A stretch of DNA of 64,000 nt. It comes from an uncultured virus (IMG/VR IMGVR_UViG_3300028797_000153) (Duplodnaviria; Heunggongvirae; Uroviricota; Caudoviricetes). The stretch lies in IMG/VR virus record IMGVR_UViG_3300028797_000153, one strand, 5' to 3'. Each line of letters starts with the position of its first letter. The stretch's first letter is position 1. Shown in pieces: positions 1-14,121 of the stretch. The notes under the pieces are model-generated. The model made no database searches. It saw only the letters and a program-made list of their open reading frames with translations, and was not told the origin of the DNA. Position numbers and translations under genes: made by a program.

Positions 1-10
1 CCACCATTAT

Positions 11-85
11 GGGCCGATAGTTTAATTGGGAAAACACCCGCCCTGCAAGCGGGAGTTACGGGTTCAATTCCCGCCGTGTCCACCA
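11..85 (+). tRNA. tRNA-Ala(TGC)
   Basis: Cloverleaf, anticodon loop CC-TGC-AA (C33), G3:U70, CCA end. Confidence 0.85.
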
Positions 86-90
86 TTAAT

Positions 91-165
91 GCCCCTGTAG
101 TATAATGGCTATTACAGTTGTCTTGTAAACATCAGAAGGCCGTTCGATTCGACCCTGGGGCACCA
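91..165 (+). tRNA. tRNA-Thr(TGT)
   Basis: Cloverleaf, loop CTTGTAA, CCA. Confidence 0.9.
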
Positions 166-170
166 TATAT

Positions 171-247
171 CCGGGATTGGCTCAGTTTGGTAGAGCACTT
201 GATTTGGGATCAAGGGGTCAAAAGTTCAAATCTTTTATCTCGGGCCA
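171..247 (+). tRNA. tRNA-Pro(TGG)
   Basis: Cloverleaf, loop TTTGGGA, CCA. Confidence 0.9.
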
Positions 248-252
248 TAAAT

Positions 253-328
253 GGGGCCATAGCTCAATTGGGAGAGCGCCACATTAGCATTGTGGAGGTT
301 GCGAGATCGTCCCTCGTTGGTTCCACCA
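253..328 (+). tRNA. tRNA-Ala(AGC), A34
   Basis: Cloverleaf, loop TTAGCAT, atypical T-loop ATCGTCC, CCA. Confidence 0.85.
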
Positions 329-332
329 TTAT

Positions 333-451
333 AGAACCTGTGCTTATTTCTAATAGGGCAAGCAGGTTGTCGCTGGTTCGAATCCAGCCTTCCCAACCAT
401 TATCGGGAAGTAGCTCAGTTGGCAGAGCACCCGCAAAATATTAGCCAGGTC
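333..451 (+). ncRNA. Y-RNA-like module 1 with circularly permuted tRNA body
   Basis: ACCTG-T-GCT-TATTTCT ... AGC-CAGGT closing stem; inside: T arm, CTTCCCA-ACCA, spacer, CGGGAAG, D arm. Confidence 0.8.
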
Positions 452-456
452 AAATT

Positions 457-532
457 GCACTCTTAGCTCAGCTGGGAGAGCGACTGCTCGACGTGCAGTA
501 GGTCATAGGTCCGAGCCCTATAGAGTGCACCA
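457..532 (+). tRNA. tRNA-Val(GAC)
   Basis: Cloverleaf, loop TC-GAC-GT (atypical), CCA. Confidence 0.85.
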
Positions 533-559
533 TTAAATTCATAGAAGGAGAAAAAGATT

Positions 560-640
560 ATGATGAATTTAACCAAAAAGATTAAAAATATAAGAAAAAC
601 CAAAAGAATTGGTTTCTTTCATCATGGCTTAATTAGTTAG
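560..640 (+). CDS. Leader peptide 1 (Lys/Arg-rich, 26 aa) MMNLTKKIKNIRKTKRIGFFHHGLIS
   Basis: AAGGAG RBS; followed by terminator; 3' end complementary to terminator 5' arm. Confidence 0.75.
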   Translation: MMNLTKKIKNIRKTKRIGFFHHGLIS

Positions 641-663
641 TAAAAAACTTAAATTAATAGTTT

Positions 664-698
664 ATGCTGGGTAGTTAAGTCTGCTCAGCATTTTTATT
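664..698 (+). terminator. Attenuator terminator 1
   Basis: ATGCTGGGTAG/CTGCTCAGCAT 11-bp stem + T tract. Confidence 0.8.
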
Positions 699-703
699 AA
701 ATT

Positions 704-780
704 GCCCCCATAACTCAACTGGATAGAGTAACGGTCTTCTAAACCGTAAGTTGAAGGTCCGAGTCCTTCTGGGGGCGCCA
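704..780 (+). tRNA. tRNA-Arg(TCT)
   Basis: Cloverleaf, loop CTTCTAA, CCA. Confidence 0.92.
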
Positions 781-782
781 TT

Positions 783-841
783 AGAGCCTATACTTATTTC
801 TAGCTTCAAGCAAACAACTTTTAATTGTTCATAGTTAGGCC
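783..841 (+). ncRNA. Y-RNA-like module 2 carrying a Lys(UUU) anticodon stem-loop
   Basis: GCCTA-T-ACT-TATTTCT ... AGT-TAGGC; internal AACAA-CTTTTAA-TTGTT. Confidence 0.75.
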
Positions 842-845
842 ATAT

Positions 846-923
846 GGGTCCATAACTCAGTTGGATTAGAGTACGAAACTTTTAATTTCGGAGTCGAGAG
901 TTCGAGTCTCTCTGGACCCACCA
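846..923 (+). tRNA. tRNA-Lys(TTT)
   Basis: Cloverleaf, loop CTTTTAA, CCA. Confidence 0.92.
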
Positions 924-927
924 ATAT

Positions 928-1005
928 GCACCCTTAGCTCAGTTGGCTAGCAGCACTACACTTTTAATGTAGGGGTCCTGGGTTCGAGTCCCAGAGGGTG
1001 CACCA
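928..1005 (+). tRNA. tRNA-Lys(TTT), second divergent copy
   Basis: Cloverleaf, loop CTTTTAA, CCA. Confidence 0.9.
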
Positions 1006-1008
1006 TAT

Positions 1009-1085
1009 ACCTCCTTAACTCAACTGGTTAGAGTACTTGCCTCTTAAGCATGGAGTTCTGGGTTCGAGTCCCAGAGGAGGTACCA
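1009..1085 (+). tRNA. tRNA-Lys(CTT)
   Basis: Cloverleaf, loop CTCTTAA, CCA. Confidence 0.9.
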
Positions 1086-1100
1086 TTAAAATAAATATAT

Positions 1101-1110
1101 TGTATAATAT
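1101..1110 (+). promoter_or_regulatory. TGTATAATA -10 promoter motif (host sigma-A type); further copies near 1339, 2083, 3022, 5883, 8227, 9605, 11971, 15183, 18297, 19295, 22645, 26165, 34252, 43265
   Basis: Recurrent intergenic motif containing the TATAAT consensus, often just after a terminator and before a gene. Confidence 0.75.
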
Positions 1111-1115
1111 ATTAT

Positions 1116-1191
1116 GCCGGCTTAGCTCAGCTGTTAGAGCAACGCACTAGTAATGCGTAGGTCGGGGGTTAGAGTCCCTCAGCCGGCACCA
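1116..1191 (+). tRNA. tRNA-Thr(AGT), A34
   Basis: Cloverleaf, loop CTAGTAA, T-loop TTAGAGT, CCA. Confidence 0.88.
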
Positions 1192-1193
1192 TC

Positions 1194-1302
1194 AGAGCCC
1201 ATGCTTATTTCTTTCGGCTTCTAACCGGGTGGTCGTTGGTTCGAATCCAACCGTTCCAGTTGGAACGTAGCTCAGTGGGAGAGCACCTTATTTAGCTGGG
1301 CC
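1194..1302 (+). ncRNA. Y-RNA-like module 3: complete circularly permuted tRNA-Arg(UCU) mimic
   Basis: GCCCA-T-GCT ... AGC-TGGGC stem; order anticodon arm (CTTCTAA), T arm, loop-closed acceptor CGTTCCA/TGGAACG, D arm. Confidence 0.85.
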
Positions 1303-1355
1303 AAAACTAAAAAACTATATTATTTTAAGATTTTTCAATGTATAATATAGTGCAT

Positions 1356-1430
1356 CCTCCTGTAGCTCAACAGTTAGAGCGGGCGCCTTATAAGCGTCAT
1401 ACCTTGGTGCGACTCCAGGCAGGAGGACCA
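1356..1430 (+). tRNA. tRNA-Ile(TAT)
   Basis: Cloverleaf, loop CTTATAA, CCA. Confidence 0.85.
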
Positions 1431-1446
1431 ATAATAAAAAATATAT

Positions 1447-1460
1447 GCTAAATTAAAATG
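1447..1460 (+). promoter_or_regulatory. GCTAAATTA motif, putative phage-specific (late) promoter; also at 2114, 14832, 29248, 34777, 41389, 47883, 47979, 51501, 55207, 61929
   Basis: 11 exact intergenic copies seen, mostly at starts of virion-gene operons. Confidence 0.7.
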
Positions 1461-1475
1461 CGAGGAGAGAACAAA

Positions 1476-1562
1476 ATGATGATTAGAAGAAGTTATCAAT
1501 TGAGCCAATTATCAGGTTTATGTGGTCATAACCAATTTTTGTTTTACTCCAATCGCGATTAA
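1476..1562 (+). CDS. Leader peptide 2 (Gln/Leu codons, 28 aa) MMIRRSYQLSQLSGLCGHNQFLFYSNRD
   Basis: GAGGAG RBS; TCCAATCGC (1548-1556) complementary to terminator arm GCGATTGGA. Confidence 0.75.
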   Translation: MMIRRSYQLSQLSGLCGHNQFLFYSNRD

Positions 1563-1594
1563 ATAGAATAAGCTTAAAGTATAATATATAATTT

Positions 1595-1633
1595 AATGAG
1601 CAGCGATTGGAAAAATTGTTGCTCATTTTATTT
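1595..1633 (+). terminator. Attenuator terminator 2
   Basis: AATGAGCAGCGATT/AATTGTTGCTCATT 14-bp stem + T-rich tail. Confidence 0.8.
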
Positions 1634-1659
1634 ACAAAGCAAAAATTCTATGGTATAAT
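1631..1659 (+). promoter_or_regulatory. Sigma-A-type promoter
   Basis: TTTACA-17 nt-TATAAT with upstream TG. Confidence 0.7.
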
Positions 1660-1668
1660 ATTAAATAC

Positions 1669-1743
1669 AGGGAAGTAGCCAAGTGGTAAGGCATGAGACT
1701 TTGACTCTCACATTCGAAGGTTCGACCCCTTCCTTCCCTGCCA
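1669..1743 (+). tRNA. tRNA-Gln(TTG)
   Basis: Cloverleaf, loop CTTTGAC, CCA. Confidence 0.92.
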
Positions 1744-1745
1744 AT

Positions 1746-1830
1746 GCTCTGGTGGTGGAACTGGCATACACATGGCACTTAAAATGCCACGCCGTAAGGA
1801 TTGAGAGTTCAAATCTCTCCCGGAGCACCA
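1746..1830 (+). tRNA. tRNA-Leu(TAA)
   Basis: Cloverleaf with long variable arm, loop CTTAAAA. Confidence 0.92.
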
Positions 1831-1834
1831 TTAT

Positions 1835-1911
1835 GCTCCTCTAGCCCAACTGGCAGAGGCAATAAGCTCAAAACTTATTCAGTCTGAGTTCGAATCTCAG
1901 GGGGAGTACCA
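1835..1911 (+). tRNA. tRNA-Leu(CAA), short variable loop
   Basis: Cloverleaf, loop CTCAAAA, CCA. Confidence 0.85.
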
Positions 1912-1913
1912 TA

Positions 1914-2035
1914 AGAGCCTATGCTTATTTCTTAAGGACTGAAAATCCGCGTGTAGGTGGTTCAACTCCATCCCTTCCCGCCAAATATTTGGGAAGTGTA
2001 GCTCACCGGTAGAGCAGCGAACTATTAGCTAGGCC
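1914..2035 (+). ncRNA. Y-RNA-like module 4: circularly permuted tRNA-Phe(GAA) mimic
   Basis: GCCTA-T-GCT ... AGC-TAGGC; GGA-CTGAAAA-TCC, T arm, CTTCCC-GCCA, spacer, GGGAAG, D arm. Confidence 0.85.
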
Positions 2036-2152
2036 AAAAAATAAAAAATTTCAGAAATATATTTACAATTAATTAAAAATGTTGTATAATATATGTGAGC
2101 GTTAAAAATATACGCTAAATTATAATGGCGCAAAGCTAGGAAGGAAAAGATT

Positions 2153-2269
2153 ATGCAAAAACTATCTATCATGTCCCTTAATCGTGAACATAGTGATTCA
2201 GTATATTTCGGTTGCTGGAATATTTTTGCTACCATCGGATCATCTAGTTTTGAGCAGGTTAATGAATAA
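2153..2269 (+). CDS. Leader peptide 3 (38 aa) MQKLSIMSLNREHSDSVYFGCWNIFATIGSSSFEQVNE
   Basis: AGGAAGGA RBS; 2235-2250 pairs 16 bp with 2297-2312 (terminator 5' arm). Confidence 0.75.
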   Translation: MQKLSIMSLNREHSDSVYFGCWNIFATIGSSSFEQVNE

Positions 2270-2301
2270 ATAAATTAAAAACATTAACAAAAAATGAAAT
2301 T

Positions 2302-2332
2302 AGGTGGTCTGAATAAGATCACCTTTTATTTT
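2302..2332 (+). terminator. Attenuator terminator 3
   Basis: AGGTGGTCT/AGATCACCT stem + TTTATTTT. Confidence 0.8.
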
Positions 2333-2335
2333 ACT

Positions 2336-2421
2336 GGGTAGGTGGTAGAGTGGTCAATTACACCTGACTGTAAATCAGGCGCCACAGGCTTACGGTGGTT
2401 CGAATCCATCCCTGCCCACCA
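2336..2421 (+). tRNA. tRNA-Tyr(GTA)
   Basis: Cloverleaf, long variable arm, loop CTGTAAA. Confidence 0.92.
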
Positions 2422-2426
2422 GATAT

Positions 2427-2502
2427 GTGGACGTGAATCTGACGGTTTAGATGCTAGTCTGTGAAACTAGATTACTGAGTTCAACTCTCAGACATCCACC
2501 CA
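2427..2502 (+). tRNA. tRNA-His(GTG) with encoded G-1
   Basis: Loop CTGTGAA; G2427 opposite discriminator C. Confidence 0.85.
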
Positions 2503-2506
2503 AAAT

Positions 2507-2596
2507 GGTCTATTAGCTCAGTCTGGTAGAGCGGCCGACCAAAGTGTCGGTGACAAACAGCGCGCGAGTGCATTGGTTCAAATCCAATATAGACCA
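2507..2596 (+). tRNA. Atypical tRNA-like gene (8-nt anticodon loop CCAAAGTG, long unpaired variable region, no encoded CCA)
   Basis: GGTCTAT/ATAGACC acceptor, normal D and T arms. Confidence 0.65.
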
Positions 2597-2604
2597 TCGT
2601 ATAT

Positions 2605-2679
2605 GCTCCCATAGACAAGCGGTTAAGTCATGCGCCTTTCACGCGTATATCGCCGGTTCGAATCCGACTGGGAGTACCA
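2605..2679 (+). tRNA. tRNA-Glu(TTC)
   Basis: Cloverleaf, loop CTTTCAC. Confidence 0.9.
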
Positions 2680-2683
2680 AAAT

Positions 2684-2760
2684 GGGTCATTAGCTCAGCT
2701 GGTGGTAGCGACTGACTGTTAATCAGTAGGCCGAAGGTTCAAGTCCTTCATGACCCGCCA
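2684..2760 (+). tRNA. tRNA-Asn(GTT)
   Basis: Cloverleaf, loop CTGTTAA. Confidence 0.92.
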
Positions 2761-2764
2761 ATTT

Positions 2765-2838
2765 CCAGGCATAACTCAATGGTAGAGTGCACGACTGATA
2801 ATCGTGATATCTTAGTTCAATTCTAGGTGCCTGGACCA
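2765..2838 (+). tRNA. tRNA-Ile(GAT)
   Basis: Cloverleaf, loop CTGATAA. Confidence 0.9.
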
Positions 2839-2841
2839 TAT

Positions 2842-2915
2842 AGGAGTTTGGTATATTGGCCGTGCCTTGGTCTCCAAAACCAATGAAGTGAGTTCGATTC
2901 TTACAACTCCTGCCA
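2842..2915 (+). tRNA. tRNA-Trp(CCA)
   Basis: Cloverleaf, loop CTCCAAA. Confidence 0.88.
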
Positions 2916-2917
2916 AT

Positions 2918-2996
2918 GGCCCTGTAGCTCAGCCGTGGTGAGAGCACTGGTCTGAAAAACCAGGTGTCGGCGGTTCGACTCCGCCTGGGGCCACCA
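2918..2996 (+). tRNA. tRNA-Phe(GAA)
   Basis: Cloverleaf, loop CTGAAAA. Confidence 0.92.
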
Positions 2997-3046
2997 AATA
3001 GTTAATTTATTATAGATTAACTGTATAATATTATGTATTGCAACAT

Positions 3047-3123
3047 TGCGGGGAAGTGTAACGGTTTGCATCTGAGGCTCATAACCTCAGGGTAGTGAGG
3101 TTCAACTCCCACCCCCGCGACCA
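3047..3123 (+). tRNA. tRNA-Met(CAT), initiator-like
   Basis: TGCGGGG/CCCCGCG acceptor with weak 1:72 pair, loop CTCATAA. Confidence 0.82.
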
Positions 3124-3199
3124 GGACCGTTGGTGTAGCGGTTTACATGTCACACTGTCACTGTGAAGATGACGGGTTCGACTCCCGTACGGTCCGCCA
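3124..3199 (+). tRNA. tRNA-Asp(GTC)
   Basis: Cloverleaf, loop CTGTCAC. Confidence 0.92.
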
Positions 3200-3202
3200 C
3201 TT

Positions 3203-3287
3203 AGAGCCTATACTTATTTCTTAATGGTTATAGAAGGTTCGATTCCTTCACCGCCCTCTAACCCAGGGCAGTGATATTAGTTAGGCC
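3203..3287 (+). ncRNA. Y-RNA-like module 5 (T arm + acceptor-like hairpin)
   Basis: GCCTA-T-ACT ... AGT-TAGGC; GAAGG-TTCGATT-CCTTC then GCCCT/AGGGC. Confidence 0.75.
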
Positions 3288-3349
3288 AAAAAATTATTAT
3301 TTATAAAGGAGATTAAGTTTATGTAAGTATTAAAAAGGAGGGCATAACA

Positions 3350-3601
3350 ATGAGTTATAGCCGCAAACAATTTGATAAACATAAACTTAAAAAACTTGCC
3401 CATGATAGCTGTAATGGCTGGAAAGGCGGAGCTTATTATGACAGAAGAAAAACCTGTTATAGACGCTACTGGAAAAGTCATGGACATACTTCAAGATATA
3501 CTTATTATAAAAAGTATTATCACAAAAGAATGCGAAGATTTATTAACAAGTATGGTTGGTATTCTAAAAAGGAATTTGATATAATCTGGACTTGTTGGTA
3601 A
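3350..3601 (+). CDS. Small basic hypothetical protein
   Basis: AGGAGG RBS, 83 aa, K/R/Y-rich. Confidence 0.7.
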   Translation: MSYSRKQFDKHKLKKLAHDSCNGWKGGAYYDRRKTCYRRYWKSHGHTSRYTYYKKYYHKRMRRFINKYGWYSKKEFDIIWTCW

Positions 3602-3608
3602 AATAATT

Positions 3609-3684
3609 AGCTGGGTGGCCAAGTGGTTAAGGCACAAAGTTCATACCTTTGGGATCGTCAGTTCAAATCTGACCCCAGCTACCA
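3609..3684 (+). tRNA. tRNA-Met(CAT) (elongator Met or Ile2)
   Basis: Cloverleaf, loop TTCATAC. Confidence 0.82.
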
Positions 3685-3686
3685 TC

Positions 3687-3748
3687 AGAGCCGATACTTA
3701 TTTCTGTCTAGAGACAATTTCCTGCCACGAAATCCATATAGTTCGGCC
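3687..3748 (+). ncRNA. Y-RNA-like module 6 carrying a Gly(GCC) anticodon stem-loop
   Basis: GCCGA-T-ACT ... AGT-TCGGC; internal ATTTC-CTGCCAC-GAAAT. Confidence 0.75.
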
Positions 3749-3756
3749 AATAATAT

Positions 3757-3830
3757 GGCTTCTTAGTTTAAAAGGAAAACTGGATCCTTACAAGATCAGG
3801 ACGGTGGAGCGTTACCATCAGAGGCCACCA
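3757..3830 (+). tRNA. tRNA-Val(TAC)
   Basis: Loop CTTACAA, atypical T-loop AGCGTTA, CCA. Confidence 0.8.
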
Positions 3831-3835
3831 AATAT

Positions 3836-3910
3836 GCGGACGTAGGACAATGGTTAGTCCACTAGCTTGCCATGCTAGATATACGGGTTCGATTCCCGCC
3901 GTCCGCTCCA
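3836..3910 (+). tRNA. tRNA-Gly(GCC)
   Basis: Cloverleaf, loop TTGCCAT. Confidence 0.92.
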
Positions 3911-3915
3911 CCGAA

Positions 3916-4049
3916 GTGACTCTTCCTTATATCGTAAAGAATAAGCGGGTATTGCTTACCTGGGTCCAAAGCAACGGTTAAGCTGGCATTACCGAGAGTG
4001 CCAGAGAAGGTGTCTGTGGTTCACCTGAGGAGTTAGTCACCAAACCACA
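3916..4049 (+). ncRNA. Unidentified multibranch RNA with 3' pseudoknot
   Basis: GTGAC/GTCAC closure, four internal hairpins, loop TGTGGTT pairs with 3' AACCACA. Confidence 0.6.
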
Positions 4050-4053
4050 ATAC

Positions 4054-4128
4054 GCGGGTATCGTCCAATGGTTAGGGCCTCTGCCTTCCAAGCAGAAGAT
4101 ACCGGTTCGACTCCGGCTACCCGCTCCA
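4054..4128 (+). tRNA. tRNA-Gly(TCC)
   Basis: Cloverleaf, loop CTTCCAA. Confidence 0.92.
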
Positions 4129-4155
4129 TACTAAAAATAATTAAGGAGAAAAAGT

Positions 4156-4251
4156 ATGAAAACAATGAATTCACGAAGTCTAAGTTGTGGTCGCTGTAGT
4201 AGCAGTTGTTTTCATTCACTCAATTTTCTCCCAGTAGCTCAATCGGATTAG
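4156..4251 (+). CDS. Leader peptide 4 (Ser/Cys/Arg-rich, 31 aa) MKTMNSRSLSCGRCSSSCFHSLNFLPVAQSD, overlapping tRNA-Arg(ACG)
   Basis: AAGGAG RBS with the same AGGAGAAAAAG context as leader 1. Confidence 0.65.
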   Translation: MKTMNSRSLSCGRCSSSCFHSLNFLPVAQSD

Positions 4252-4305
4252 AGCATAACACTACGAATGTTAAGGTTGCAGGTTCAAGTCCTACCTGGGA
4301 GGCCA
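4228..4305 (+). tRNA. tRNA-Arg(ACG)
   Basis: Cloverleaf, loop CTACGAA. Confidence 0.92.
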
Positions 4306-4306
4306 A

Positions 4307-4381
4307 GCTTTGGTAGCCAAGTGGTTAAGGCCTCGGTCTGCAACACCGATATCGCGGGTTCAAATCCCACCCAAAGCTCCA
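4307..4381 (+). tRNA. tRNA-Cys(GCA)
   Basis: Cloverleaf, loop CTGCAAC. Confidence 0.92.
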
Positions 4382-4386
4382 TATTT

Positions 4387-4474
4387 GGAGGCATGGAGTA
4401 ATGGTATCTCAATACCCTGCTAAGGTATCCATCGGGCAACTGATGTCCGCGTTCGAATCGCGGTGCCTCCGCCA
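4387..4474 (+). tRNA. tRNA-Ser(GCT)
   Basis: Long variable arm, loop CTGCTAA. Confidence 0.92.
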
Positions 4475-4489
4475 AATGAAAGGATTTTT

Positions 4490-4795
4490 ATGAAAGTGTA
4501 TTTTATAGCTACAGCAAATAATATTAAAAAAGATAAGCTCGGTTGGATAGACTGGGGCAAATCACACAGAGTTGTTGGCTTTTTTGATAATTTAGAAGAT
4601 GCTAAAAAGGCTGTTGAAGATAATTGGTGTGATCTATATGAAAATGGCTACTATAAATATGCTATTATAGAAGAAAGGGAAGATGGTCTATACTCTACTT
4701 GTGATAATCCTATTTTCTATAAGTGGGAAGATGGTGGCTATAAAAAAATAAAAAGGCCAAGAGCAACTTATGGATTCTGTAATTTCACAATTTAA
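4490..4795 (+). CDS. Hypothetical phage protein
   Basis: GAAAGGA RBS before ATG 4490; the track start lies inside the tRNA. Confidence 0.8.
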   Translation: MKVYFIATANNIKKDKLGWIDWGKSHRVVGFFDNLEDAKKAVEDNWCDLYENGYYKYAIIEEREDGLYSTCDNPIFYKWEDGGYKKIKRPRATYGFCNFTI

Positions 4796-4796
4796 T

Positions 4797-4880
4797 ACCC
4801 AGATGGTGGAATGGTAGACACCCGTGGCTTAGAACCACGTGCCGAAAGGCGTGCAGGTTCAAATCCTGTTCTGGGTACCA
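4797..4880 (+). tRNA. tRNA-Leu(TAG)
   Basis: Long variable arm, loop CTTAGAA. Confidence 0.92.
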
Positions 4881-4900
4881 ATATAATAAAGGACTAATTT

Positions 4901-5653
4901 ATGTATTTTAAAATTCCAGAAGCTTTTATTAGAAACAGACGTGAATTATTTGCATTAATGGTTGCAACAGTTTCATCTATTCATGTAATTCAGCAACAAA
5001 TAGATACAACTAATTTAACTATTTCAGAAATGCAAGAATTTTTAGCTAAAAAAGGCTTTATAAAAGTTGTTCCAGATAAACCTACTACATTACAAGAGCT
5101 AATTAATAAGCTAGATATCGCAAGTACAGCTTTTGTTAAATTAGCAAATAATAAATATATTGGAATAGTTGCAAATACATATTATTATACAGAAAACTTA
5201 GACAGTATAAAAGTTGCTGAATATTATTTAAATACTGAATATGGCCACAATCTTAAATATAAATGTATAAAATGTGGAAATTGTTGTCGTGTATATGGCT
5301 CAAATGGTGGCGTAATATTTTCTGAAGAGGATATTAACAAAATAGAACAAAATACACCATATACAATTCGTGATAAAGTTGTATTGGTATCTAATAAAAG
5401 TAATAAAAAACTATATCATCTTAGCCTTAAAAATAACCAATGTGAGTTCTTAGATAAAGATAATAGTTGTAAGCTAATTAATACATTATCTGTTAATTGC
5501 CAACTACCTGTAATTTGTTATTTATTTAGAGCTGGTCGTGGTGCAGGTATTAATTTCTTTAGCTGCCCAGGTATTGGATTGCCTGATGGTGATAACTGGG
5601 ATATATTAGATGTATTTAATTGGATTGATAAATATTGTAAAGAATATCAATAA
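4901..5653 (+). CDS. YkgJ/CxxCxxCC cysteine-cluster protein
   Basis: KCIKCGNCC ... CEFLDKDNSC ... PVICYLF motifs. Confidence 0.7.
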   Translation: MYFKIPEAFIRNRRELFALMVATVSSIHVIQQQIDTTNLTISEMQEFLAKKGFIKVVPDKPTTLQELINKLDIASTAFVKLANNKYIGIVANTYYYTENLDSIKVAEYYLNTEYGHNLKYKCIKCGNCCRVYGSNGGVIFSEEDINKIEQNTPYTIRDKVVLVSNKSNKKLYHLSLKNNQCEFLDKDNSCKLINTLSVNCQLPVICYLFRAGRGAGINFFSCPGIGLPDGDNWDILDVFNWIDKYCKEYQ

Positions 5654-5654
5654 T

Positions 5655-5737
5655 GCGCAAGTGGTGGAATTGGTATACACGCAGGTCTAAGAAGCCTGTG
5701 CTTCGGCATAAGAGTTCAAGTCTCTTCTTGCGCACCA
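5655..5737 (+). tRNA. tRNA-Leu(AAG), A34
   Basis: Long variable arm, loop CTAAGAA. Confidence 0.9.
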
Positions 5738-5740
5738 TAT

Positions 5741-5827
5741 GGAGGGTTGTGATAATTGGTAGTCGGGCTGTCTTGAAAACAGTTGGGTCGCAAGGCCTTT
5801 AGGGTTCGAGTCCCTAACCCTCCGCCA
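5741..5827 (+). tRNA. tRNA-Ser(TGA)
   Basis: Long variable arm, loop CTTGAAA. Confidence 0.92.
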
Positions 5828-5908
5828 TATAAAAGTTTATTAAAAAATCATATTAAAAGTATGGTTTTTTTCTTTTTATAACTGTATAATATTACGAGGT
5901 GTTTTATT

Positions 5909-6346
5909 ATGGGATTAGATCAATATTTAAGAGCAAAAACAACTAAAAGAGAGTATCAAGGTGCTACTGGTGCTTGTAGTGGCCTTTTTGGTTTGGCACC
6001 AGATGATGAAGGAATGGTTGAAATTGGTTATTGGAGAAAAGCTTATGACCAAGATAACCTTATTTCAAGATATGCTGAAGCTGATAATGGTTGTAATAAT
6101 AGATTAATTAAAAAAGAAGATATTGATAGTATTATTAAAGAAGCTAAACATATTCTTAAAACACATAAGTTTGATAAAGAAGATGGCTTTGATATTACAG
6201 AAAGTACAGAAATTGAAGATTTTATTTCATATAGTACTTGGCAAAGTAAAAGAAAGTGGAAAGATACTATTAGGTTTTTTACAGATGCTAAAACAATTTT
6301 AAAAGAAGATCCAGAAGCAGAGATTTATTACTGCACTTGGTATTAG
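5909..6346 (+). CDS. Conserved phage hypothetical protein
   Basis: MGLDQYL ... EIGYWRK ... IYYCTW pattern; GAGG RBS. Confidence 0.8.
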   Translation: MGLDQYLRAKTTKREYQGATGACSGLFGLAPDDEGMVEIGYWRKAYDQDNLISRYAEADNGCNNRLIKKEDIDSIIKEAKHILKTHKFDKEDGFDITESTEIEDFISYSTWQSKRKWKDTIRFFTDAKTILKEDPEAEIYYCTWY

Positions 6347-6355
6347 GAGTAATTT

Positions 6356-7291
6356 ATGGTTAAAGATGCATTAGGCGATAGAATGAAAGAATACTACGAA
6401 GGAGTTACTAAAACTAAGCTTGTTCGTAGAATGCCTGTTATTATTAGATTAGATGGTTGCCATTTCCATACTTTTACGCGTGGTTTTAGAAAACCTTTTG
6501 ATGAACTTCTTAATAAAACTATGCAAGCAACTATGAAATATCTTTGTGAAAACATCCAGGGAGTAGTTTTAGGATATACACAATCAGATGAAATTACTTT
6601 AATTTTGGTTGATTATGCTAAACTTGAAACATCTGCCTGGTTTGATTATGAAATCCAAAAGATTGTTTCAGTTAGTGCTGCTCTTGCTACATATGCTTTT
6701 AATAAATATTTTAATGAATTTTATCTTTATCAACTTGCTGAAAAATGTGGGGAAACAGATGAATTTGATTTAGTTTATGATAGAGCTCGTAAAAAAGGTG
6801 CTTACTTTGATAGCCGTGCTTTTAATATTCCGAAAGAAGAAGTTACTAATTGTGTTTTATGGCGACAACTTGATGCTGAAAGAAACTCAGTTAACTCATT
6901 AGGGCAAAGCTTATTCCCACATAAAGCTCTTCAAGGATTAAGTTGTAAAGCCCTTAAAGCTAAAATTGAAGAAGAAAAAGGCATTGTTTGGGGCAATCTT
7001 CCTACCGAACAAAAACGTGGAACTTGTTGCATTAAAAACAGGACTTATACTCTTCCTGATGGCCAAGTAGTTAAAGAAAAAGAATATATTAATTATAAAG
7101 GCCACTTTGGAACTTTCTATTTTGATGGTGATGGTTATTATTTCTTTTATAGGGACAATGAATCATATGAAGTCAAAAGCATTAAGCTTGAAGTAAAAGA
7201 GCATGCTGAATGGGTTATTGATAAAGATATTCCAAGATTTATTGATAGCGGCCGTGAATATATTGAAAAACTTATTAATGTAGGAGAATAA
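6356..7291 (+). CDS. Thg1-like (tRNA-His guanylyltransferase / 3'-5' polymerase) protein
   Basis: IIRLDGCHFHTFT, GYTQSDEI, FDSRAF, WRQLDAERNS motifs. Confidence 0.92.
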   Translation: MVKDALGDRMKEYYEGVTKTKLVRRMPVIIRLDGCHFHTFTRGFRKPFDELLNKTMQATMKYLCENIQGVVLGYTQSDEITLILVDYAKLETSAWFDYEIQKIVSVSAALATYAFNKYFNEFYLYQLAEKCGETDEFDLVYDRARKKGAYFDSRAFNIPKEEVTNCVLWRQLDAERNSVNSLGQSLFPHKALQGLSCKALKAKIEEEKGIVWGNLPTEQKRGTCCIKNRTYTLPDGQVVKEKEYINYKGHFGTFYFDGDGYYFFYRDNESYEVKSIKLEVKEHAEWVIDKDIPRFIDSGREYIEKLINVGE

Positions 7292-9095: not shown

Positions 9096-9536
9096 ATGAA
9101 AAGATTAACACCAGAAGAAATAAAATTTGTAAAAGAAACTAAATTTACTCCAACAGTTTATCAATGTGATCAATATTATTTAACTTCATTTGATGACTAC
9201 ACTGACGCTGCTAAAGTTGCTAAAGAGAAGTATGGTGTAGATTTAGATAAATTTATTGCTAAGAATATTGCAGCAAGTTTAAATGATGCTGATGCCATTT
9301 CTTTAGATTATGTTGCTATTTATTTATTATATAGCTTCTTCACAAAAGATGAACTTGAAAAAATGACACCTAAAGAAGCTCTTAGCTGGCTTATGGAGTA
9401 TAGATATTATTTCGGGTTTAGAAAATGGGCTGAACAAGATGCAGCTAATGCTATTTATGATGCTATTGCTATTTATGATGGTGCTGCAGAGTTCTATGAT
9501 CAGCCAGATGGAAATGTTTGGTGTCGTGAAAAATAA
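9096..9536 (+). CDS. Hypothetical protein
   Basis: AAGGGG RBS before ATG 9096. Confidence 0.75.
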   Translation: MKRLTPEEIKFVKETKFTPTVYQCDQYYLTSFDDYTDAAKVAKEKYGVDLDKFIAKNIAASLNDADAISLDYVAIYLLYSFFTKDELEKMTPKEALSWLMEYRYYFGFRKWAEQDAANAIYDAIAIYDGAAEFYDQPDGNVWCREK

Positions 9537-9618
9537 TTTTTTTTGAAAAATTTTAAAATTTATTAGCTAAAATAATAATCAGCAGGAAAAAATAAATTTT
9601 CTGCTGTATAATATATAG

Positions 9619-10780
9619 CTAGTTACGCAGAAATGCGTTTCTATATATAAGATATATTAAGGCCAGACCCGACATGTTGAAATATCTAGGATGAGGTCGC
9701 CAATACAGCCTTAATATATATCCGGACTTATAGCCAGTAAGCCATATGACTAGACATGAGCTTACTCTTGAAAAGGCACAACGGGGTTTGGCAAGTAATA
9801 TCCACAACTAGTTATTAAAACTTGCTGGGCAAAAATAAGCATAAGTCCATTAACAACGAGGGCACGTTGTAAAATAACGAGTTTAGCCGAGTCTTATAGA
9901 CGGTATGGAGTCTGATATAAACCCATGCAACCCACATTCTTTATAGGAGGTATGGAACGCTAGAATAAATACTTTGGGATCTAGCTTATCTGGCCGGCCC
10001 AATGGTTAGTTTGGGGTGCAACTCCTCAACTGGTCTCAAAACACCCATGCAGCAGTAACCAGGGTGAATACTAGAACGTCAAAACGTGAAAGAGCCTGCT
10101 GCATTTAGAGAGTCGGAGTATTTACCGGCTGCGGGTTCGCCCGCTTCTTATTAGAGCTTAAAAAGCACTTGCACCATTATGAACTTCCGAGAAAGCAGAA
10201 GGTGAAGCTGACGAAAAGCCTAAGCGTCTATAAATAAAGTTTATTGGTAAATTTATGAAAACATAGGGTACTCACACCGAATGTTTCTTGCAGCAATGCG
10301 CTTAACTGGTGGGTTGGGGTTAAAGTTGTCTACCAATGTGAGAAAAACAACTGCTCCCTTGGCTAATTTAGTCCGGTAGGGAGATAATATAAGTTTAGGT
10401 GGCCCAGGAGGTATTTATTATTCCCCTCTCCCCAGAAACATAGTGAGGTCACCAGCCTATAATCAGGTATAGCAATGGCACCTGGATGCTATTATCAAAT
10501 AGCATAACTTACGAGGCCGCTTTATGCCGCCGCCCTATTGAGTTTCAACTCTGATAGGTCCAGAGGACGCCGAACGAAAGTTCTACTCCCGAAGAGACGA
10601 CCTAAGCATGTCCTTAAACTGCTTATTATAGAAGGAAAACTATACAACCCGTATGCACCCACTACTACGTTAATAAATGGGTATATTTATTTCCCGGTCC
10701 CTTAACGGCAGTTTCCAGTTTCTGTGAAACTAAATAATATAAGGACTGCAGGCAAATGAAGCAATTCACACTACCTGCTT
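9619..10780 (+). ncRNA. Cluster of small structured RNAs (unidentified)
   Basis: No credible ORF, GC-richer than coding DNA, successive self-closing stems, promoter at 9605. Confidence 0.6.
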
Positions 10781-10782
10781 AT

Positions 10783-11380
10783 TAGTTCCACCACCTGGTA
10801 CTGAATGTTGTTTGATAGTGAGCTGTGGTCAATATAAAAATATTGCAAGAGAAAGACGGCATAACAGCAATAACACAAAATAATCCGTCTCTCATTAATA
10901 TGTGTGTATCTATCAAGTAAGTGGACTACCTCAGCCTATTAAACGTCAGTTTAGCCTAAAGCTATTAATTAATAGGTAATTAACCAAGATTAAAATTGCG
11001 AAAACACTTATAGAAATATAAGCTACTTGGTATAGAGAGTGATAAAGCCAGGGAACTCCAGCCGTTATGGTTGCAAGGAGGGTTGAGCCTCCCGTCTGTT
11101 AATCGAAAAAGCCGGACTTCGCTAGTCTTGACGTTAAAGAACATCGATTCCGTTATAGTGTCTGGTAAAACTACAAAGAGAGCACAGGAGTTATACGTCG
11201 ATAGCCCATTTAGAGCGTTTGTGGGAATTGGGTAAGAAACTAACCGTGGAAATGTGCAGAGTCGGTGAAAACGTATATCCCAAGGCAATGTAAGAATTAT
11301 AGTAGGCCAGCCTGGCTGTTGATCATAGTTCTCGGGTAACGTTGTCCCTGTTCACAATGTCTTGTACTAACATTGTTTTT
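10783..11380 (+). ncRNA. Large ROOL/GOLLD-like ncRNA candidate, apparently circularly permuted
   Basis: ~600 nt with multiple stems and pseudoknots; blocks CTGAATG, ATGTGTGTATC, CTCAGCCT, GTGGAAATGTGCAG resemble ROOL as I recall it. Confidence 0.45.
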
Positions 11381-11475
11381 CTAATAAAATATAATAGGAT
11401 TTATATCCATGGCGATAAATCGTAAATCCTGGTTGCCTTCAAGTCCGAAATGACGTTAAACTATGGAGGTATAGA

Positions 11476-11706
11476 ATGTTAGGATTTACACTTTATGGAA
11501 CAACAGATGTTCCACATGAATATTACGTTTATGCTGATGGTGTAGATTGTAAACCAGCTTACTTCTTAACTAGAAAAGAAGCCGAAATCTACATGAATAA
11601 TTATGCTTCTTCACATGGTATTCAATTAGAATGCACTGAATGTGATAAGCATGAGCGTAAATATTCTAATCATAAGGGTGTTAGATTTTATATTAATAGA
11701 ATTTAA
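11476..11706 (+). CDS. Hypothetical protein
   Basis: GGAGG RBS, 76 aa. Confidence 0.7.
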   Translation: MLGFTLYGTTDVPHEYYVYADGVDCKPAYFLTRKEAEIYMNNYASSHGIQLECTECDKHERKYSNHKGVRFYINRI

Positions 11707-11736
11707 TGCCCTTAACAATTCATTTATAATTAGAAG

Positions 11737-11936
11737 AGATTCTAAATAATATTTACCTGAGCAGTACGACTTATGCCTGAAACCTGATATAAAGGAATCT
11801 TGGGTATGTCAGAAACAACTGACTATGACATAAGCAAAAAGGGCGGAAACTATACTTATTTCTTCAGTGCTTTAGAACAAATGATCTAAAAAGAAATAGG
11901 CTGCAAGTTAGTTAGTTCAAATATTATTTAGAATCT
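11737..11936 (+). ncRNA. ~200 nt RNA closed by a perfect 18-bp stem, containing Y-RNA-like module 7 (11845-11918)
   Basis: AGATTCTAAATAATATTT/AAATATTATTTAGAATCT; AACTA-T-ACT-TATTTCT ... AGT-TAGTT. Confidence 0.65.
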
Positions 11937-12012
11937 TTTTTATTTTTTTATTTACTTTTAAAATTTTTATTGTATAATATTAATGTGGATGAAAACTGAA
12001 AGGATCCACAAT

Positions 12013-12067
12013 AGAGCCGATACTTATTTCTGGTTATTTATAAGAATGTGTTAAAAACAGTTCGGCC
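12013..12067 (+). ncRNA. Y-RNA-like module 8 in the leader of the TerD-fusion gene
   Basis: GCCGA-T-ACT-TATTTCT ... AGT-TCGGC. Confidence 0.75.
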
Positions 12068-12074
12068 AAGTAAT

Positions 12075-12136
12075 TAAACAGCTTTTAATGTGTTAATACT
12101 TGGGGTAACTAGCATATTAAAGGCTGTTTATTTTTT
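12075..12136 (+). terminator. Leader terminator upstream of gene 12148
   Basis: 21-bp stem + TTTTTT immediately before the GGAGG RBS. Confidence 0.8.
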
Positions 12137-12147
12137 CGGAGGTCATT

Positions 12148-14121
12148 ATGACAAACATTCAAAAAATCTTAATTTCTAGACATTACTTACTTGCAGCTCC
12201 AATTGCTGAAGAAGATAAAGTAAAAGTTGCATATTATAATGCATATCTTTTAGCTAACTTTGGTATTGTAGTTGATAAGCCACAACGTTTAAGCGATATT
12301 AGCGTTAAAGAAATTGCTGATGTTTATAAGCTTAGTGTTCCAGCATCTTTCTACAAAAACCCACAAGATACTAAATATTTTTCTTGTGCAGAATTACTTA
12401 TTGAACAATTAGTTTCTTACTTTTTAGTTGAAACTGGCACAGGTATCTATAATAGAGTCGAGATCTTTGAAAAGAATCTCCCTGAATATAAGCAAGGTGA
12501 TGAACTTAAACTTCGTGAGTTCAAGATTTTAACTGCAGAAGAAGCTGATGTTGTTTTAGCTGATATTGCTAAAGCATACTGTGCTTATACTCGCCCATGG
12601 GCTCTTGATGAAGAAGAAGAATTTATCTGGTTATTTGAACATGGTTATTATCAAAACTTTGAAGTCGCATGTGGTGATAATGCTATTAAATTACTTGAAA
12701 AAGATGCTTCTTTTGCACGCTTTTTATTCAAAAAAGATTTAGTTAAGATTTCAGTTACTCGCTGCGGTGAAAAATCTAAACTTATGCTTGATGCTAAAAC
12801 AGCTGACCTTATTAGAGCAGCTATTCCTTATGTTAAGGATTGCCCAATGTCTAAAAAGCAAGCTAAGTATTTTAATACTTTAATTGCTAAAGTTGGTGCA
12901 CAAGGCAAAGTTAAAGAAGCCTCTAATGCTCGTTCACCATATAAAGCAGCTCAAGAAGCCCTTAATAAAGGTGATGTTTTAGGTGCAGCTAAGATTTATG
13001 CAGCTAATGGTTCTCTTTTAGAAAGAAACTTAAAGATGCTTATTTCAAGAGCTGACCCACAAACAGCTTTAGATATTTTAGGCTTACTTAAAGCTAAAAA
13101 TCCACTTGTTCTTTTCCAAATTATGTCCACATTAATGGCTGATAATGGGGAAGCTCGTACCTTTACATTTACTAAAAATAGATTAGTCAAACATCATATT
13201 GAAACTGAATATGAACATACTTGGCGTAAATCTAAGTTAAATGATGCCACAAGAAAGCTTATTCATGATGCTTGCCTTGTTAAAATTGAAGAGGGCTATC
13301 GTGCCTTTGATTCTTTAGGCAAAGTCTATATTTCACCAGATTTCTTCAAGATTGGTGTCCCAGTTAATACATCAGCTACTGGTAAAGGTATTGATGTATT
13401 ACCAACAAGCTCTAGACTTCCACTTCCAACAAATAAAGTTCGTACTTTCGTTTATTGGAAAGATGCATTTGATATTGATGCTTCCTTAATTTTTGTTGAT
13501 AATGTTGGCAAATTAAGCTACATGTATTTCGGCAACTATTCTGGAAAACCATTTGGTCATGATGTCCTATTTTCTGGCGATAATAGAAATCATACTGGCT
13601 CTGAATATTATGATATTGATGTTGAAGCTCTTCATAGAAGAGGCATTAGATATGTAATTCAAGCTTTCCATGGCTTCTGCTCTAATTTAAACCAAGGCGA
13701 AATTTATTGTGGTTATCAAAATAAAGAAAACTTTAATACACAAGCCTGGGACCCAAAAAACATTGAATTAAAAATTCATGTTAAGGGTGATACAAGAGCA
13801 TTTATGGCTTTTGCCTTAGATTTAGCAACTAATGAAGTTGTTATCTTAAATCAACTTTTAGACGAAGAATTAAGAGTTGTTAACGGTAAGAACTTTGCTC
13901 CAATTGCTAAGTTACTTGACCCAGCTCAACTTGAATTAAATGCTGGCTTAATTGCTTCATTTAGAGCAAGTGAAGTTGTTGCTACACCAGAAGAAGCTGA
14001 TGTTGTATTTGATGCTAATTTCAAACCAGAAATAGCTGAAGATGGCACTGCAATTCAAAAAGTTGTTAGACCATTTGAAGTTGAAAAGATTGTTGCATTA
14101 GCTAATGGTGCAAATATTTAA
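12148..14121 (+). CDS. Helical N-terminal region + TerD domain protein; probable Ro/TROVE(Rot)-TerD RNA-binding protein
   Basis: C-terminal YWKDAFDIDAS, FSGD, SEYYDID TerD-like motifs; long helical N-terminus; flanked by Y-like RNAs. Confidence 0.6.
   Translation: MTNIQKILISRHYLLAAPIAEEDKVKVAYYNAYLLANFGIVVDKPQRLSDISVKEIADVYKLSVPASFYKNPQDTKYFSCAELLIEQLVSYFLVETGTGIYNRVEIFEKNLPEYKQGDELKLREFKILTAEEADVVLADIAKAYCAYTRPWALDEEEEFIWLFEHGYYQNFEVACGDNAIKLLEKDASFARFLFKKDLVKISVTRCGEKSKLMLDAKTADLIRAAIPYVKDCPMSKKQAKYFNTLIAKVGAQGKVKEASNARSPYKAAQEALNKGDVLGAAKIYAANGSLLERNLKMLISRADPQTALDILGLLKAKNPLVLFQIMSTLMADNGEARTFTFTKNRLVKHHIETEYEHTWRKSKLNDATRKLIHDACLVKIEEGYRAFDSLGKVYISPDFFKIGVPVNTSATGKGIDVLPTSSRLPLPTNKVRTFVYWKDAFDIDASLIFVDNVGKLSYMYFGNYSGKPFGHDVLFSGDNRNHTGSEYYDIDVEALHRRGIRYVIQAFHGFCSNLNQGEIYCGYQNKENFNTQAWDPKNIELKIHVKGDTRAFMAFALDLATNEVVILNQLLDEELRVVNGKNFAPIAKLLDPAQLELNAGLIASFRASEVVATPEEADVVFDANFKPEIAEDGTAIQKVVRPFEVEKIVALANGANI

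Follow-up and report, generated by a model that had tools for sequence, protein, structure and literature searches.

A candidate ribosome-mediated attenuator ahead of arginine and lysine tRNA genes in a large T4-like phage

The reason that phages carry tRNA genes has been a matter of debate for more than 50 years, as the available text of PMC10264068 recounts, and the regulation of these genes has hardly been addressed so far. The matter is raised in concrete form by a 64,000-nucleotide (nt) stretch of DNA from an uncultured tailed virus (IMG/VR record IMGVR_UViG_3300028797_000153; "the window" below means this whole stretch), in which a short open reading frame (ORF) and a terminator stand just ahead of one arginine and three lysine tRNA genes. 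Does this leader decide whether those genes are transcribed, and does it do so by gauging how quickly Arg and Lys codons are read? An earlier note on the same DNA had proposed an attenuator that acts as a Lys/Arg sensor. We consider it probable, with moderate confidence, that positions 545-703 form a ribosome-mediated attenuator that raises transcription of the Arg and Lys tRNAs when their codons are decoded slowly.

The array that holds this leader occupies bases 1-5830 of the window. We refer to the leader units along it as U0 to U4, to the lineage of the window as W, and to the unit containing the ORF at 560-640 as U1. U1, on the + strand, begins with a Shine-Dalgarno (SD) sequence, AAGGAG, at 545-550, 9 nt before the start codon of the 26-codon ORF (MMNLTKKIKNIRKTKRIGFFHHGLIS), which ends with the stop codon TAG at 638-640. 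The codons read ATG ATG AAT TTA ACC AAA AAG ATT AAA AAT ATA AGA AAA ACC AAA AGA ATT GGT TTC TTT CAT CAT GGC TTA ATT AGT TAG. The putative sensing zone, 11 codons at 575-607, contains AAA four times (codons 6, 9, 13 and 15), AAG once (codon 7) and AGA twice (codons 12 and 16). An intrinsic terminator hairpin of 11 bp with a 6-nt loop (-15.7 kcal/mol) follows at 664-691, and after it come the U-tract TTTTATT and a 5-nt spacer (692-703). Both the hairpin and the ORF end shortly before the first gene that would be gated, tRNA-Arg(TCT) at 704-780: the hairpin 12 nt and the stop codon 63 nt upstream of it. Beyond that gene lie a short module with a Lys(UUU) anticodon loop (781-845), two tRNA-Lys(TTT) genes (846-923 and 928-1005) and a tRNA-Lys(CTT) gene (1009-1085), the four tRNA genes being found by both ARAGORN and Rfam. 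A scan from which phage-specific promoters of other consensus were out of scope found no promoter-like site at 640-704. Because no such site separates the terminator from the tRNA, the four downstream genes would depend on read-through. A T4-late-like TATTAAAT at 695-702, over the U-tract, was tried as a promoter and rejected, as transcription would start 6-8 nt on, inside the tRNA. An Rfam cmscan of 1-7000 at E <= 1 gave nothing at 545-703, with no amino-acid leader, T-box or riboswitch model matched; its matches were to tRNA, YrlA, mascRNA-menRNA and two cis-regulatory models, Plastid-ycf2 and Tymo_tRNA-like, all but tRNA below the gathering score, and those to Plastid-ycf2, Tymo_tRNA-like and mascRNA overlap tRNA genes.

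The end of the ORF can pair with the terminator. The earlier note had described pairing at 14 of 15 positions, G-U included, between 626-640 and 667-681, and this pairing is present, at -12.7 kcal/mol. The best duplex is longer and joins 625-643 (+ strand; the ORF's final five codons with its stop and the next 3 nt) to 664-681, which doubles as the 5' part of the terminator and the antiterminator's 3' strand, at -16.5 kcal/mol. When the upstream sequence was dinucleotide-shuffled, a duplex this stable arose once in 500 trials. As a control, we took seven ordinary terminators behind protein genes in the window; none did as well as 3 of 200 shuffles or fewer, the best being 4 of 200. When the nascent RNA was folded stepwise, the antiterminator was the minimum-energy fold from the emergence of 669-681 until the 3' end stood at 687-690, and at 691 the antiterminator and terminator states were isoenergetic (-18.8 versus -18.7 kcal/mol). 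The two are alternative folds, as the earlier note had held, and its ORF with the seven Lys and Arg codons in codons 6-16 and its list of downstream genes likewise agree with the sequence.

We then compared folds with parts of the leader masked; the earlier note had proposed folding with and without 626-640 masked. Masking 623-655, to mimic a ribosome that has reached the stop codon, lets the terminator fold immediately once transcribed. Masking 560-622, to mimic a stall on the Lys/Arg codons, keeps the antiterminator in place up to 690. The strand 625-643 includes the stop codon (638-640), and its 5' end lies 18 nt beyond position 607, where the last Lys/Arg codon ends. With ribosome footprints of the usual size, the modelled geometry fits: a ribosome at the stop would occlude the antiterminator strand, and a ribosome stalled at the Lys/Arg codons would not.

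Two further structures lie within the leader. A helix between 558-567, the start-codon region, and 618-627 closes it (558-627, + strand; -13.4 kcal/mol, with 1 of 200 shuffles as stable), and its equivalent in V2, one of two related lineages described below, reaches -12.8 kcal/mol (5 of 200 shuffles). A local hairpin, AAACCAA/UUGGUUU, forms within the Lys/Arg codons at 597-615 (+ strand; -5.1 kcal/mol, with 21 of 200 shuffles as stable) and sits in a nearly invariant 22-nt block where W and both relatives are identical save for one base. In the folding model the helix and the hairpin could possibly act as a polymerase pause signal or limit re-initiation. A protector hairpin of the trp type (1:2) was not found: the closing helix shares 2 nt with the antiterminator strand and coexists with the antiterminator. 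Given so small an overlap, the prediction for an untranslated transcript is read-through and not termination.

From these features we propose the following sequence of events. RNA polymerase would come from the upstream tRNA block and transcribe the 26-codon leader. If AAA, AAG and AGA at 575-607 were read fast, the ribosome would reach the stop at 638-640 and cover 625-643, the terminator at 664-691 would fold, and transcription would end 12 nt before tRNA-Arg(UCU). Slow decoding, either because host tRNA-Lys or tRNA-Arg is scarce for an AT-rich phage or because it has been cleaved by a host defence, would stall the ribosome upstream and leave 625-643 free. The free strand would pair with 664-681 once this is made, no terminator would form, and the polymerase would continue through tRNA-Arg(UCU), the Lys-anticodon-loop module and the three tRNA-Lys genes. 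A leader that is not translated would be read through likewise. On this view the phage would have at least five serial gates, of which U1 is one, and the codons of each gate would be those of the tRNA block behind it.

Relatives of the leader bear on this proposal. Leader-pattern scans gave true homologues in 4 of 9 metagenome matches and 1 of 22 viral matches, and these define three lineages: W, V2 (a 146.5-kb contig; loci L019, L052 and L066) and V3 (L063 and L069); the other matches were unrelated. Further scans with the U1 pattern returned one true homologue among five viral-contig stretches and none among ten in genome contigs. A protein search with a 250-aa ORF inside the array found no relative, and a near-DNA search of named phages matched only tRNA-Leu fragments, in six records. 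In V2 and V3 alike the U1 leader is followed by a terminator, then an Arg and three Lys tRNAs. The V2 peptide is MMQMNRKNIKSRKTKRFGSFSHGLIH and that of V3 is MMTMNRKNNKSRKTKRFGSFSHGLIQ; common to all three lineages are the SD (GGAG in V2 and V3), the paired start ATGATG, the length of 26 codons and the column of the stop. The seven Lys/Arg(AGA) codons also occur in V2 and V3, at shifted positions.

Between W and V2, identity is 38/45 in the 3' half of the ORF, 17/30 in its 5' half and 14/27 in the spacer after the stop. Substitutions number 5, 8 and 7 at codon positions 1, 2 and 3, and this lack of a third-position bias points to an RNA-like rather than a protein-like constraint. The antiterminator core, GGCTTAATT, is invariant in the three lineages, and every change in its partner leaves the bases paired (G for A opposite U, C for U opposite G). 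In the terminator stem of V2 and V3, two pairs are changed on both sides (T-A to C-G and A-T to G-C) and one on one side. The tRNA-Lys genes behind the leader seem, by eye and unaligned, to have diverged between W and V2 much further than the leader has. Contigs of four DNA runs were also compared with the window: in one run 300-749 is unchanged, and two others contain diverged pieces over 593-713, the differences listed lying at 643-663, from which we draw no conclusion. As a separate observation, V2 and V3, and not the window, carry a conserved 23-nt element, GGATTACGTTAGCGCGACGGACA, plus about 40 nt between the U1 terminator and the first tRNA (L066 3107-3172; L069 3105-3170).

An ORF whose codons match the tRNA block behind it recurs along the array. 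U0 lies just 5' of the window and was read from metagenome locus L064, which stems from a 273-kb contig, is identical to the window and adds 2.4 kb of upstream sequence. There, at 2188-2268, the leader MLRNVTVNVRPTATAKPAFGTFEHAC is followed by a terminator and by Ala, Thr, Pro, Ala and Val tRNAs, and the match of its codons to this block is reached by 6 of 5000 shuffles in W, 0 of 3000 in V2 and 9 of 3000 in V3. In U2, the ORF at 1476-1562 (CAA three times, TTG twice, TTA twice) and a terminator at 1595-1627, both on the + strand, precede tRNA-Gln(TTG), Leu(TAA) and Leu(CAA); 53 of 5000 shuffles equal the codon match, and 7 of 500 the antiterminator pairing of 1548-1556 with 1603-1611. U3 has its ORF at 2153-2269 and its terminator at 2302-2324 (+ strand), before Tyr, Glu, Asn, Ile, Trp and Phe tRNAs, with a codon match at 226 of 5000 shuffles and an antiterminator, 2234-2248 with 2300-2313, at 2 of 500. 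The U4 ORF at 4156-4251 (+ strand; AGY five times, TGT three times, CGA and CGC) has no terminator and overlaps tRNA-Arg(ACG) by 24 nt, with Cys(GCA) and Ser(GCT) next. Its codon match is reached by 1 of 5000 shuffles (binomial P 4.7e-7), and that of U4 in V2 by 14 of 3000. In V2, a unit that precedes Leu, Tyr and Phe tRNAs also carries an antiterminator, which 3 of 500 shuffles equal.

When the five leaders were set against the five tRNA blocks, the true pairing gave 48 cognate codons, the maximum of 120 permutations (mean 19.8), and a codon cluster beyond composition was found in U0, U2 and U4. Rare codons add detail. TTG makes up 0.3% of codons and occurs in the U0 leaders of V2 (once) and V3 (twice), whose blocks contain tRNA-Leu(CAA); in W it is absent from U0 and present twice in U2, the block where W has tRNA-Leu(CAA). 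These rare TTG codons move with tRNA-Leu(CAA) between blocks. ATA, 0.7% of codons, occurs in the W U1 leader and the V2 U4 leader, both 5' of tRNA-Ile(TAT).

A similar arrangement is present in an unrelated 161-kb phage contig, L026. Its SD-ORF contains the run CAA TTT ACA CTT CAA CCA CTT CCT TAT TGG TAT (QFTLQPLPYWY), and it is followed by a terminator that stands directly 5' of Tyr, Leu(GAG), Gln, Trp, Pro and Phe tRNAs. This terminator pairs with the 3' part of the ORF at -20.1 kcal/mol, matched by 0 of 500 shuffles, and over the whole ORF 10 of 31 codons match (290 of 5000 shuffles). We also screened, blind, every SD-ATG mini-ORF close to a tRNA gene in the window and in 39 viral loci, and obtained 24 units. 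Together these hold 88 cognate codons versus 64 +/- 9 expected (38 of 5000), and the window's five units hold 32 versus 18.2 +/- 4.8 (26 of 5000). A rank test against pooled tRNA triples was weak (Stouffer P 0.07).

Several results weigh against an attenuator that senses Lys and Arg codons, and we take them together here, starting with the codons of U1 itself. The leader is 47% A; shuffles that preserve its composition average 5.5 +/- 1.25 in-frame Lys/Arg(AGR) codons, and 1076 of 5000 attain the observed 7 of 25. Five Lys/Arg codons are present in each of the other two frames, and the U1 leaders of V2 and V3 are likewise within composition (398 and 422 of 3000). V2 has an extra tRNA-Arg(CCT), yet AGG is absent from its U1 leader. 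Against the codon usage of the phage (13,458 codons from 35 ORFs) the binomial P for Lys/Arg codons is 0.0135. Codon counts by themselves do not establish a Lys/Arg sensor. The earlier note had named two things that would speak against one, Lys/Arg enrichment explained by AT-richness and a lack of regulation, and the first of these holds for the U1 leader. Its proposal is partly supported, by the anatomy, the conservation and the repeated, block-matched units; because local A-richness explains the codon enrichment, the codon specificity of U1 rests on analogy with the sister units. Outside the window, the 19 remaining units of the blind screen were not significant (56 versus 46 +/- 7.5; 572 of 5000), and the 13 annotated small coding sequences (CDS) in the tRNA region of phage T5 gave no clear codon pattern. 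The sole outlier among the latter, T5.070, has 5 Cys among 41 sense codons after the start and ends 6 nt before tRNA-Cys; it looks like a CxxC zinc-ribbon protein.

If the A-rich codons of U1 are compositional, the element might be a translation-coupled attenuator that reports general translation status, for instance ribosomes that are slowed or missing for whatever reason, without being specific for Lys and Arg. That U1's Lys/Arg content lies within local composition favours this explanation, as does the prediction that untranslated RNA also adopts the antiterminator. We nevertheless think it unlikely, since the sister leaders differ sharply in composition and match their own blocks (1 of 120 permutations; U4 at 1 and U0 at 6 of 5000 shuffles), and since V2 and V3 keep seven Lys/Arg codons though the 5' half of the ORF is only 17/30 identical.

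A second group of contrary results concerns the terminators. Terminator-like sites in 1-7000 are in no excess (7, versus 5.9 +/- 2.1 in shuffles). A good promoter-like site follows the U2 terminator, at 1631-1659, and no antiterminator is detectable in U0 of W, V2 or V3 (393, 374 and 288 of 500 shuffles). In U1 the antiterminator is weaker in V2 and V3, at -14.5 and -15.0 kcal/mol and with marginal shuffle counts (26 and 33 of 500); one pair of their terminator stem is broken; and covariation support is thin because only three lineages exist. The site count, the promoter behind U2 and the missing U0 antiterminator would all suit a constitutively leaky terminator or insulator that sets the ratio of tRNA blocks or stabilises the upstream 3' end, with the ORF incidental. 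We regard this as quite unlikely, because all three lineages keep the SD, the start, the ORF length and the stop column, and the spacer just behind the stop has diverged. In addition, the antiterminator strand falls exactly on the end of the ORF (1 of 500 shuffles) and the control terminators have none, and the design of ORF plus terminator recurs with block-matched codons.

The units that lack a terminator suggest a different route. SD-ATG mini-ORFs of this kind (window 4156-4251; L032 7987-8082; L002 5217-5279; L014 5219-5287; L017 6459-6536) intrude 17-38 nt into the next tRNA, stop in its D arm and are rich in codons of the overlapped tRNA (Arg/Cys/Ser, Lys or Phe). Judging from their layout, they could offer another means by which decoding is coupled to tRNA output, through blocked folding or processing. 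The Lys- and Phe-rich ones of L002, L014 and L017 are not above composition (151, 986 and 563 of 3000), which also counts against codon sensing. One might then suppose that leader translation in general governs precursor processing or stability, through access of RNase P or RNase E, and not termination. U4 and the mini-ORFs of L002, L014, L017 and L032 speak for this, as they have no terminator and overlap the 5' part of the first tRNA, where a ribosome would unfold it. For U1 we consider it very unlikely, given its canonical hairpin, U-tract and competing fold and an ORF that stops 63 nt before the tRNA. A last alternative, that the product of the ORF is a small basic peptide with its own function, is highly improbable, for although the C-terminal RKTKRxGxFxHGLI is kept in three lineages, conservation is at the nucleotide level and includes synonymous sites, with substitutions spread over the codon positions as described above.

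Ribosome-mediated attenuation of the Arg and Lys tRNA genes remains our preferred account of U1, and one of the elements it would release deserves separate description. The module at 781-845 (+ strand), between tRNA-Arg and tRNA-Lys, is a short Y-RNA-like module, with a closing stem GCCUA/UAGGC and a 5-bp hairpin; the 7-nt loop of this hairpin, CUUUUAA, is identical in sequence to the anticodon loop of the tRNA-Lys(UUU) genes beside it. The counterpart in V2 (L019 8115-8190) also lies between tRNA-Arg and tRNA-Lys, with the loop CAUUUAA, and V3 is without the module. In 781-845 the hairpin replaces a tRNA-like domain; the module has no Rfam match, and its fold is like that of shuffles (89 of 200 as stable). 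We suggest, from the loop sequence, that the module might mimic the Lys anticodon arm or act as a decoy for it.

It belongs to a set of repeated copies, at 334-451, 784-841, 1195-1302, 1915-2035, 3204-3287 and 3688-3750, with further motif starts at 11846 and 12014. In each repeat a conserved 5' motif (GAGCCTATGCTTATTTCT-like) is matched by a closing strand on the 3' side; the closing stem covaries among copies (CCTG/CAGG, CCCA/TGGG, CCTA/TAGG and, by eye, CCGA/TCGG), and most copies enclose a permuted tRNA-like domain with a T arm, a closed acceptor stem and a D arm. The larger copies score 41.7, 37.7, 25.6 and 22.7 bits with the Rfam YrlA model (RF02553), for which the gathering score is 69. 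Among 48 proteins scanned there was no match to Ro60 (TROVE).

The earlier note had also pointed to PrrC, a tRNA-Lys nuclease that phage repair enzymes counter (according to the available text of PMC2610378). A link between U1 and such anticodon nucleases is plausible and serves here as context only. The window does encode, at 15224-17494, a 756-aa single-chain fusion of a P-loop kinase (AAA_33), a metallophosphatase and a T4-type RNA ligase 1 domain by Pfam, and this predicted domain set is that of tRNA/RNA repair enzymes. More tentatively, and as a conjecture we hold to be less probable than the attenuator itself, large phages might run a distributed, codon-resolved feedback controller of their tRNA pool, in which the Lys/Arg gate would serve also as an anticodon-nuclease alarm, releasing replacement tRNA-Lys and a Lys-anticodon-loop decoy on a Y-RNA scaffold in a phage that has a tRNA repair enzyme too. 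A phage with such a controller would gauge decoding codon by codon and transcribe only the tRNAs in short supply.

The surroundings of the array are those of a large phage. Because Pfam matches a T4-like portal protein (45367-47307) and the major capsid protein Gp23 (50044-51417), we assign the window to a large T4-like phage. G+C is about 30% outside the array, making the DNA AT-rich, and every long ORF is on the + strand. ARAGORN finds 30 tRNAs in the array and Rfam four more (11-82, 2428-2499, 3047-3120 and 3757-3827). These four, together with 2506-2598, are tRNA-like genes that ARAGORN missed or that have an odd anticodon loop, with Rfam tRNA scores of 40.7-48.4 bits; 2506-2598 is 93 nt long and carries the ARAGORN label '???'. 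Directly after the array Pfam places a homologue of the tRNA-His guanylyltransferase Thg1 (6356-7291), and farther on a peptide deformylase (26201-26929).

A few other features of the region were noticed. An 83-aa ORF at 3350-3601, very rich in Tyr, Lys and Arg, has no Pfam match and ends 8 nt 5' of tRNA-Met(CAT). Upstream of the window, L064 1740-2110 shows a strong promoter-like site and then about 300 nt of ORF-free, G+C-richer sequence before a Y-like module and U0; Rfam gave no match on L064 1500-2420, which covers this structured region. The V2 counterpart (L034 5390-5667) ends in a tRNA-like CCACCA tail, and the two may represent a stable RNA of a new type. Within the window, 9536-12148 is a 2.6-kb segment of higher G+C (0.38) without a + strand ORF of at least 100 aa, and it contains two further Y-stem 5' motifs; no tRNA was found in it, and Rfam on 9400-12300 gave nothing useful.

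If the attenuator works as proposed, decoding speed would feed back directly on tRNA synthesis and phage tRNAs would be made on demand. The same arrangement would provide a simple, portable reporter that shows when an individual tRNA species is depleted, for instance by anticodon-nuclease defences, and the block order of tRNA arrays in large phages would be explained.

How does such a system compare with what is known? Phage tRNAs are reported to counter tRNA-cleaving immunity in the available texts of PMC10264068, PMC11464382, PMC11555353 and PMC2610378. Like those counter-defence phages, the phage described here has a large tRNA set that includes Lys tRNAs, together with tRNA-repair-type enzymes. 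As far as their available texts go, these papers address the sequence and presence of phage tRNAs and not their regulation, and in that of PMC10264068 the strings 'attenuat', 'leader', 'terminator' and 'promoter' do not occur. YrlA-like RNAs have been reported in phages (available text of PMC4201824). The modules between the tRNAs resemble YrlA and Y RNAs in their conserved closing stem and internal tRNA-like domain, and differ from them in that all scores fall below the gathering score and that 781-845 has a Lys-anticodon-like hairpin instead of the tRNA-like domain. In a literature search that left most subscription-journal papers outside, including older work on the T5 and T4 tRNA regions, we found no published leader-peptide control of tRNA genes in phages or cells.

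In cells, leader-peptide attenuators control amino-acid operons and pheST (trpL, hisL, pheL, thrL, ilvL, pheM). U1 shares with the trp, his and pheST types a short SD-ORF containing codons for the amino acids that would be sensed and mutually exclusive antiterminator and terminator folds, between which ribosome position would decide, a stall leading to read-through. It departs from the amino-acid attenuators in three respects. The regulated genes are tRNA genes and not enzymes, which means that the loop would sense decoding supply directly; U1 is encoded by a phage, as one of several serial gates within one array; and its codons are mixed, Lys and Arg, and matched to the anticodons downstream. 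Unlike trp-type leaders, U1 is without a protector hairpin, and untranslated U1 RNA is predicted to read through. Its Lys/Arg codons, moreover, do not exceed what local composition gives, a second point in which it falls short of the structural pattern of these attenuators.

The T-box riboswitch binds uncharged tRNA directly and has no leader ORF. It resembles U1 in that a choice between antiterminator and terminator, dependent on tRNA status, is placed over genes for translation supply; U1 would make that choice through a leader ORF. Another parallel in sensing is the Mycobacterium tuberculosis toxin VapC4, for which Barth et al. in 2021 reportedly found that loss of tRNA-Cys is read via ribosome stalling on a Cys-rich small ORF. 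In both systems the loss of one tRNA species would be sensed because ribosomes stall in a small upstream ORF where its codons abound, whereas the VapC4 system is bacterial, is triggered by a toxin and controls stress genes rather than replacement tRNAs. Set beside these systems, U1 is best supported, on the evidence of its sequence, as the classical logic of ribosome-mediated attenuation applied to tRNA genes.

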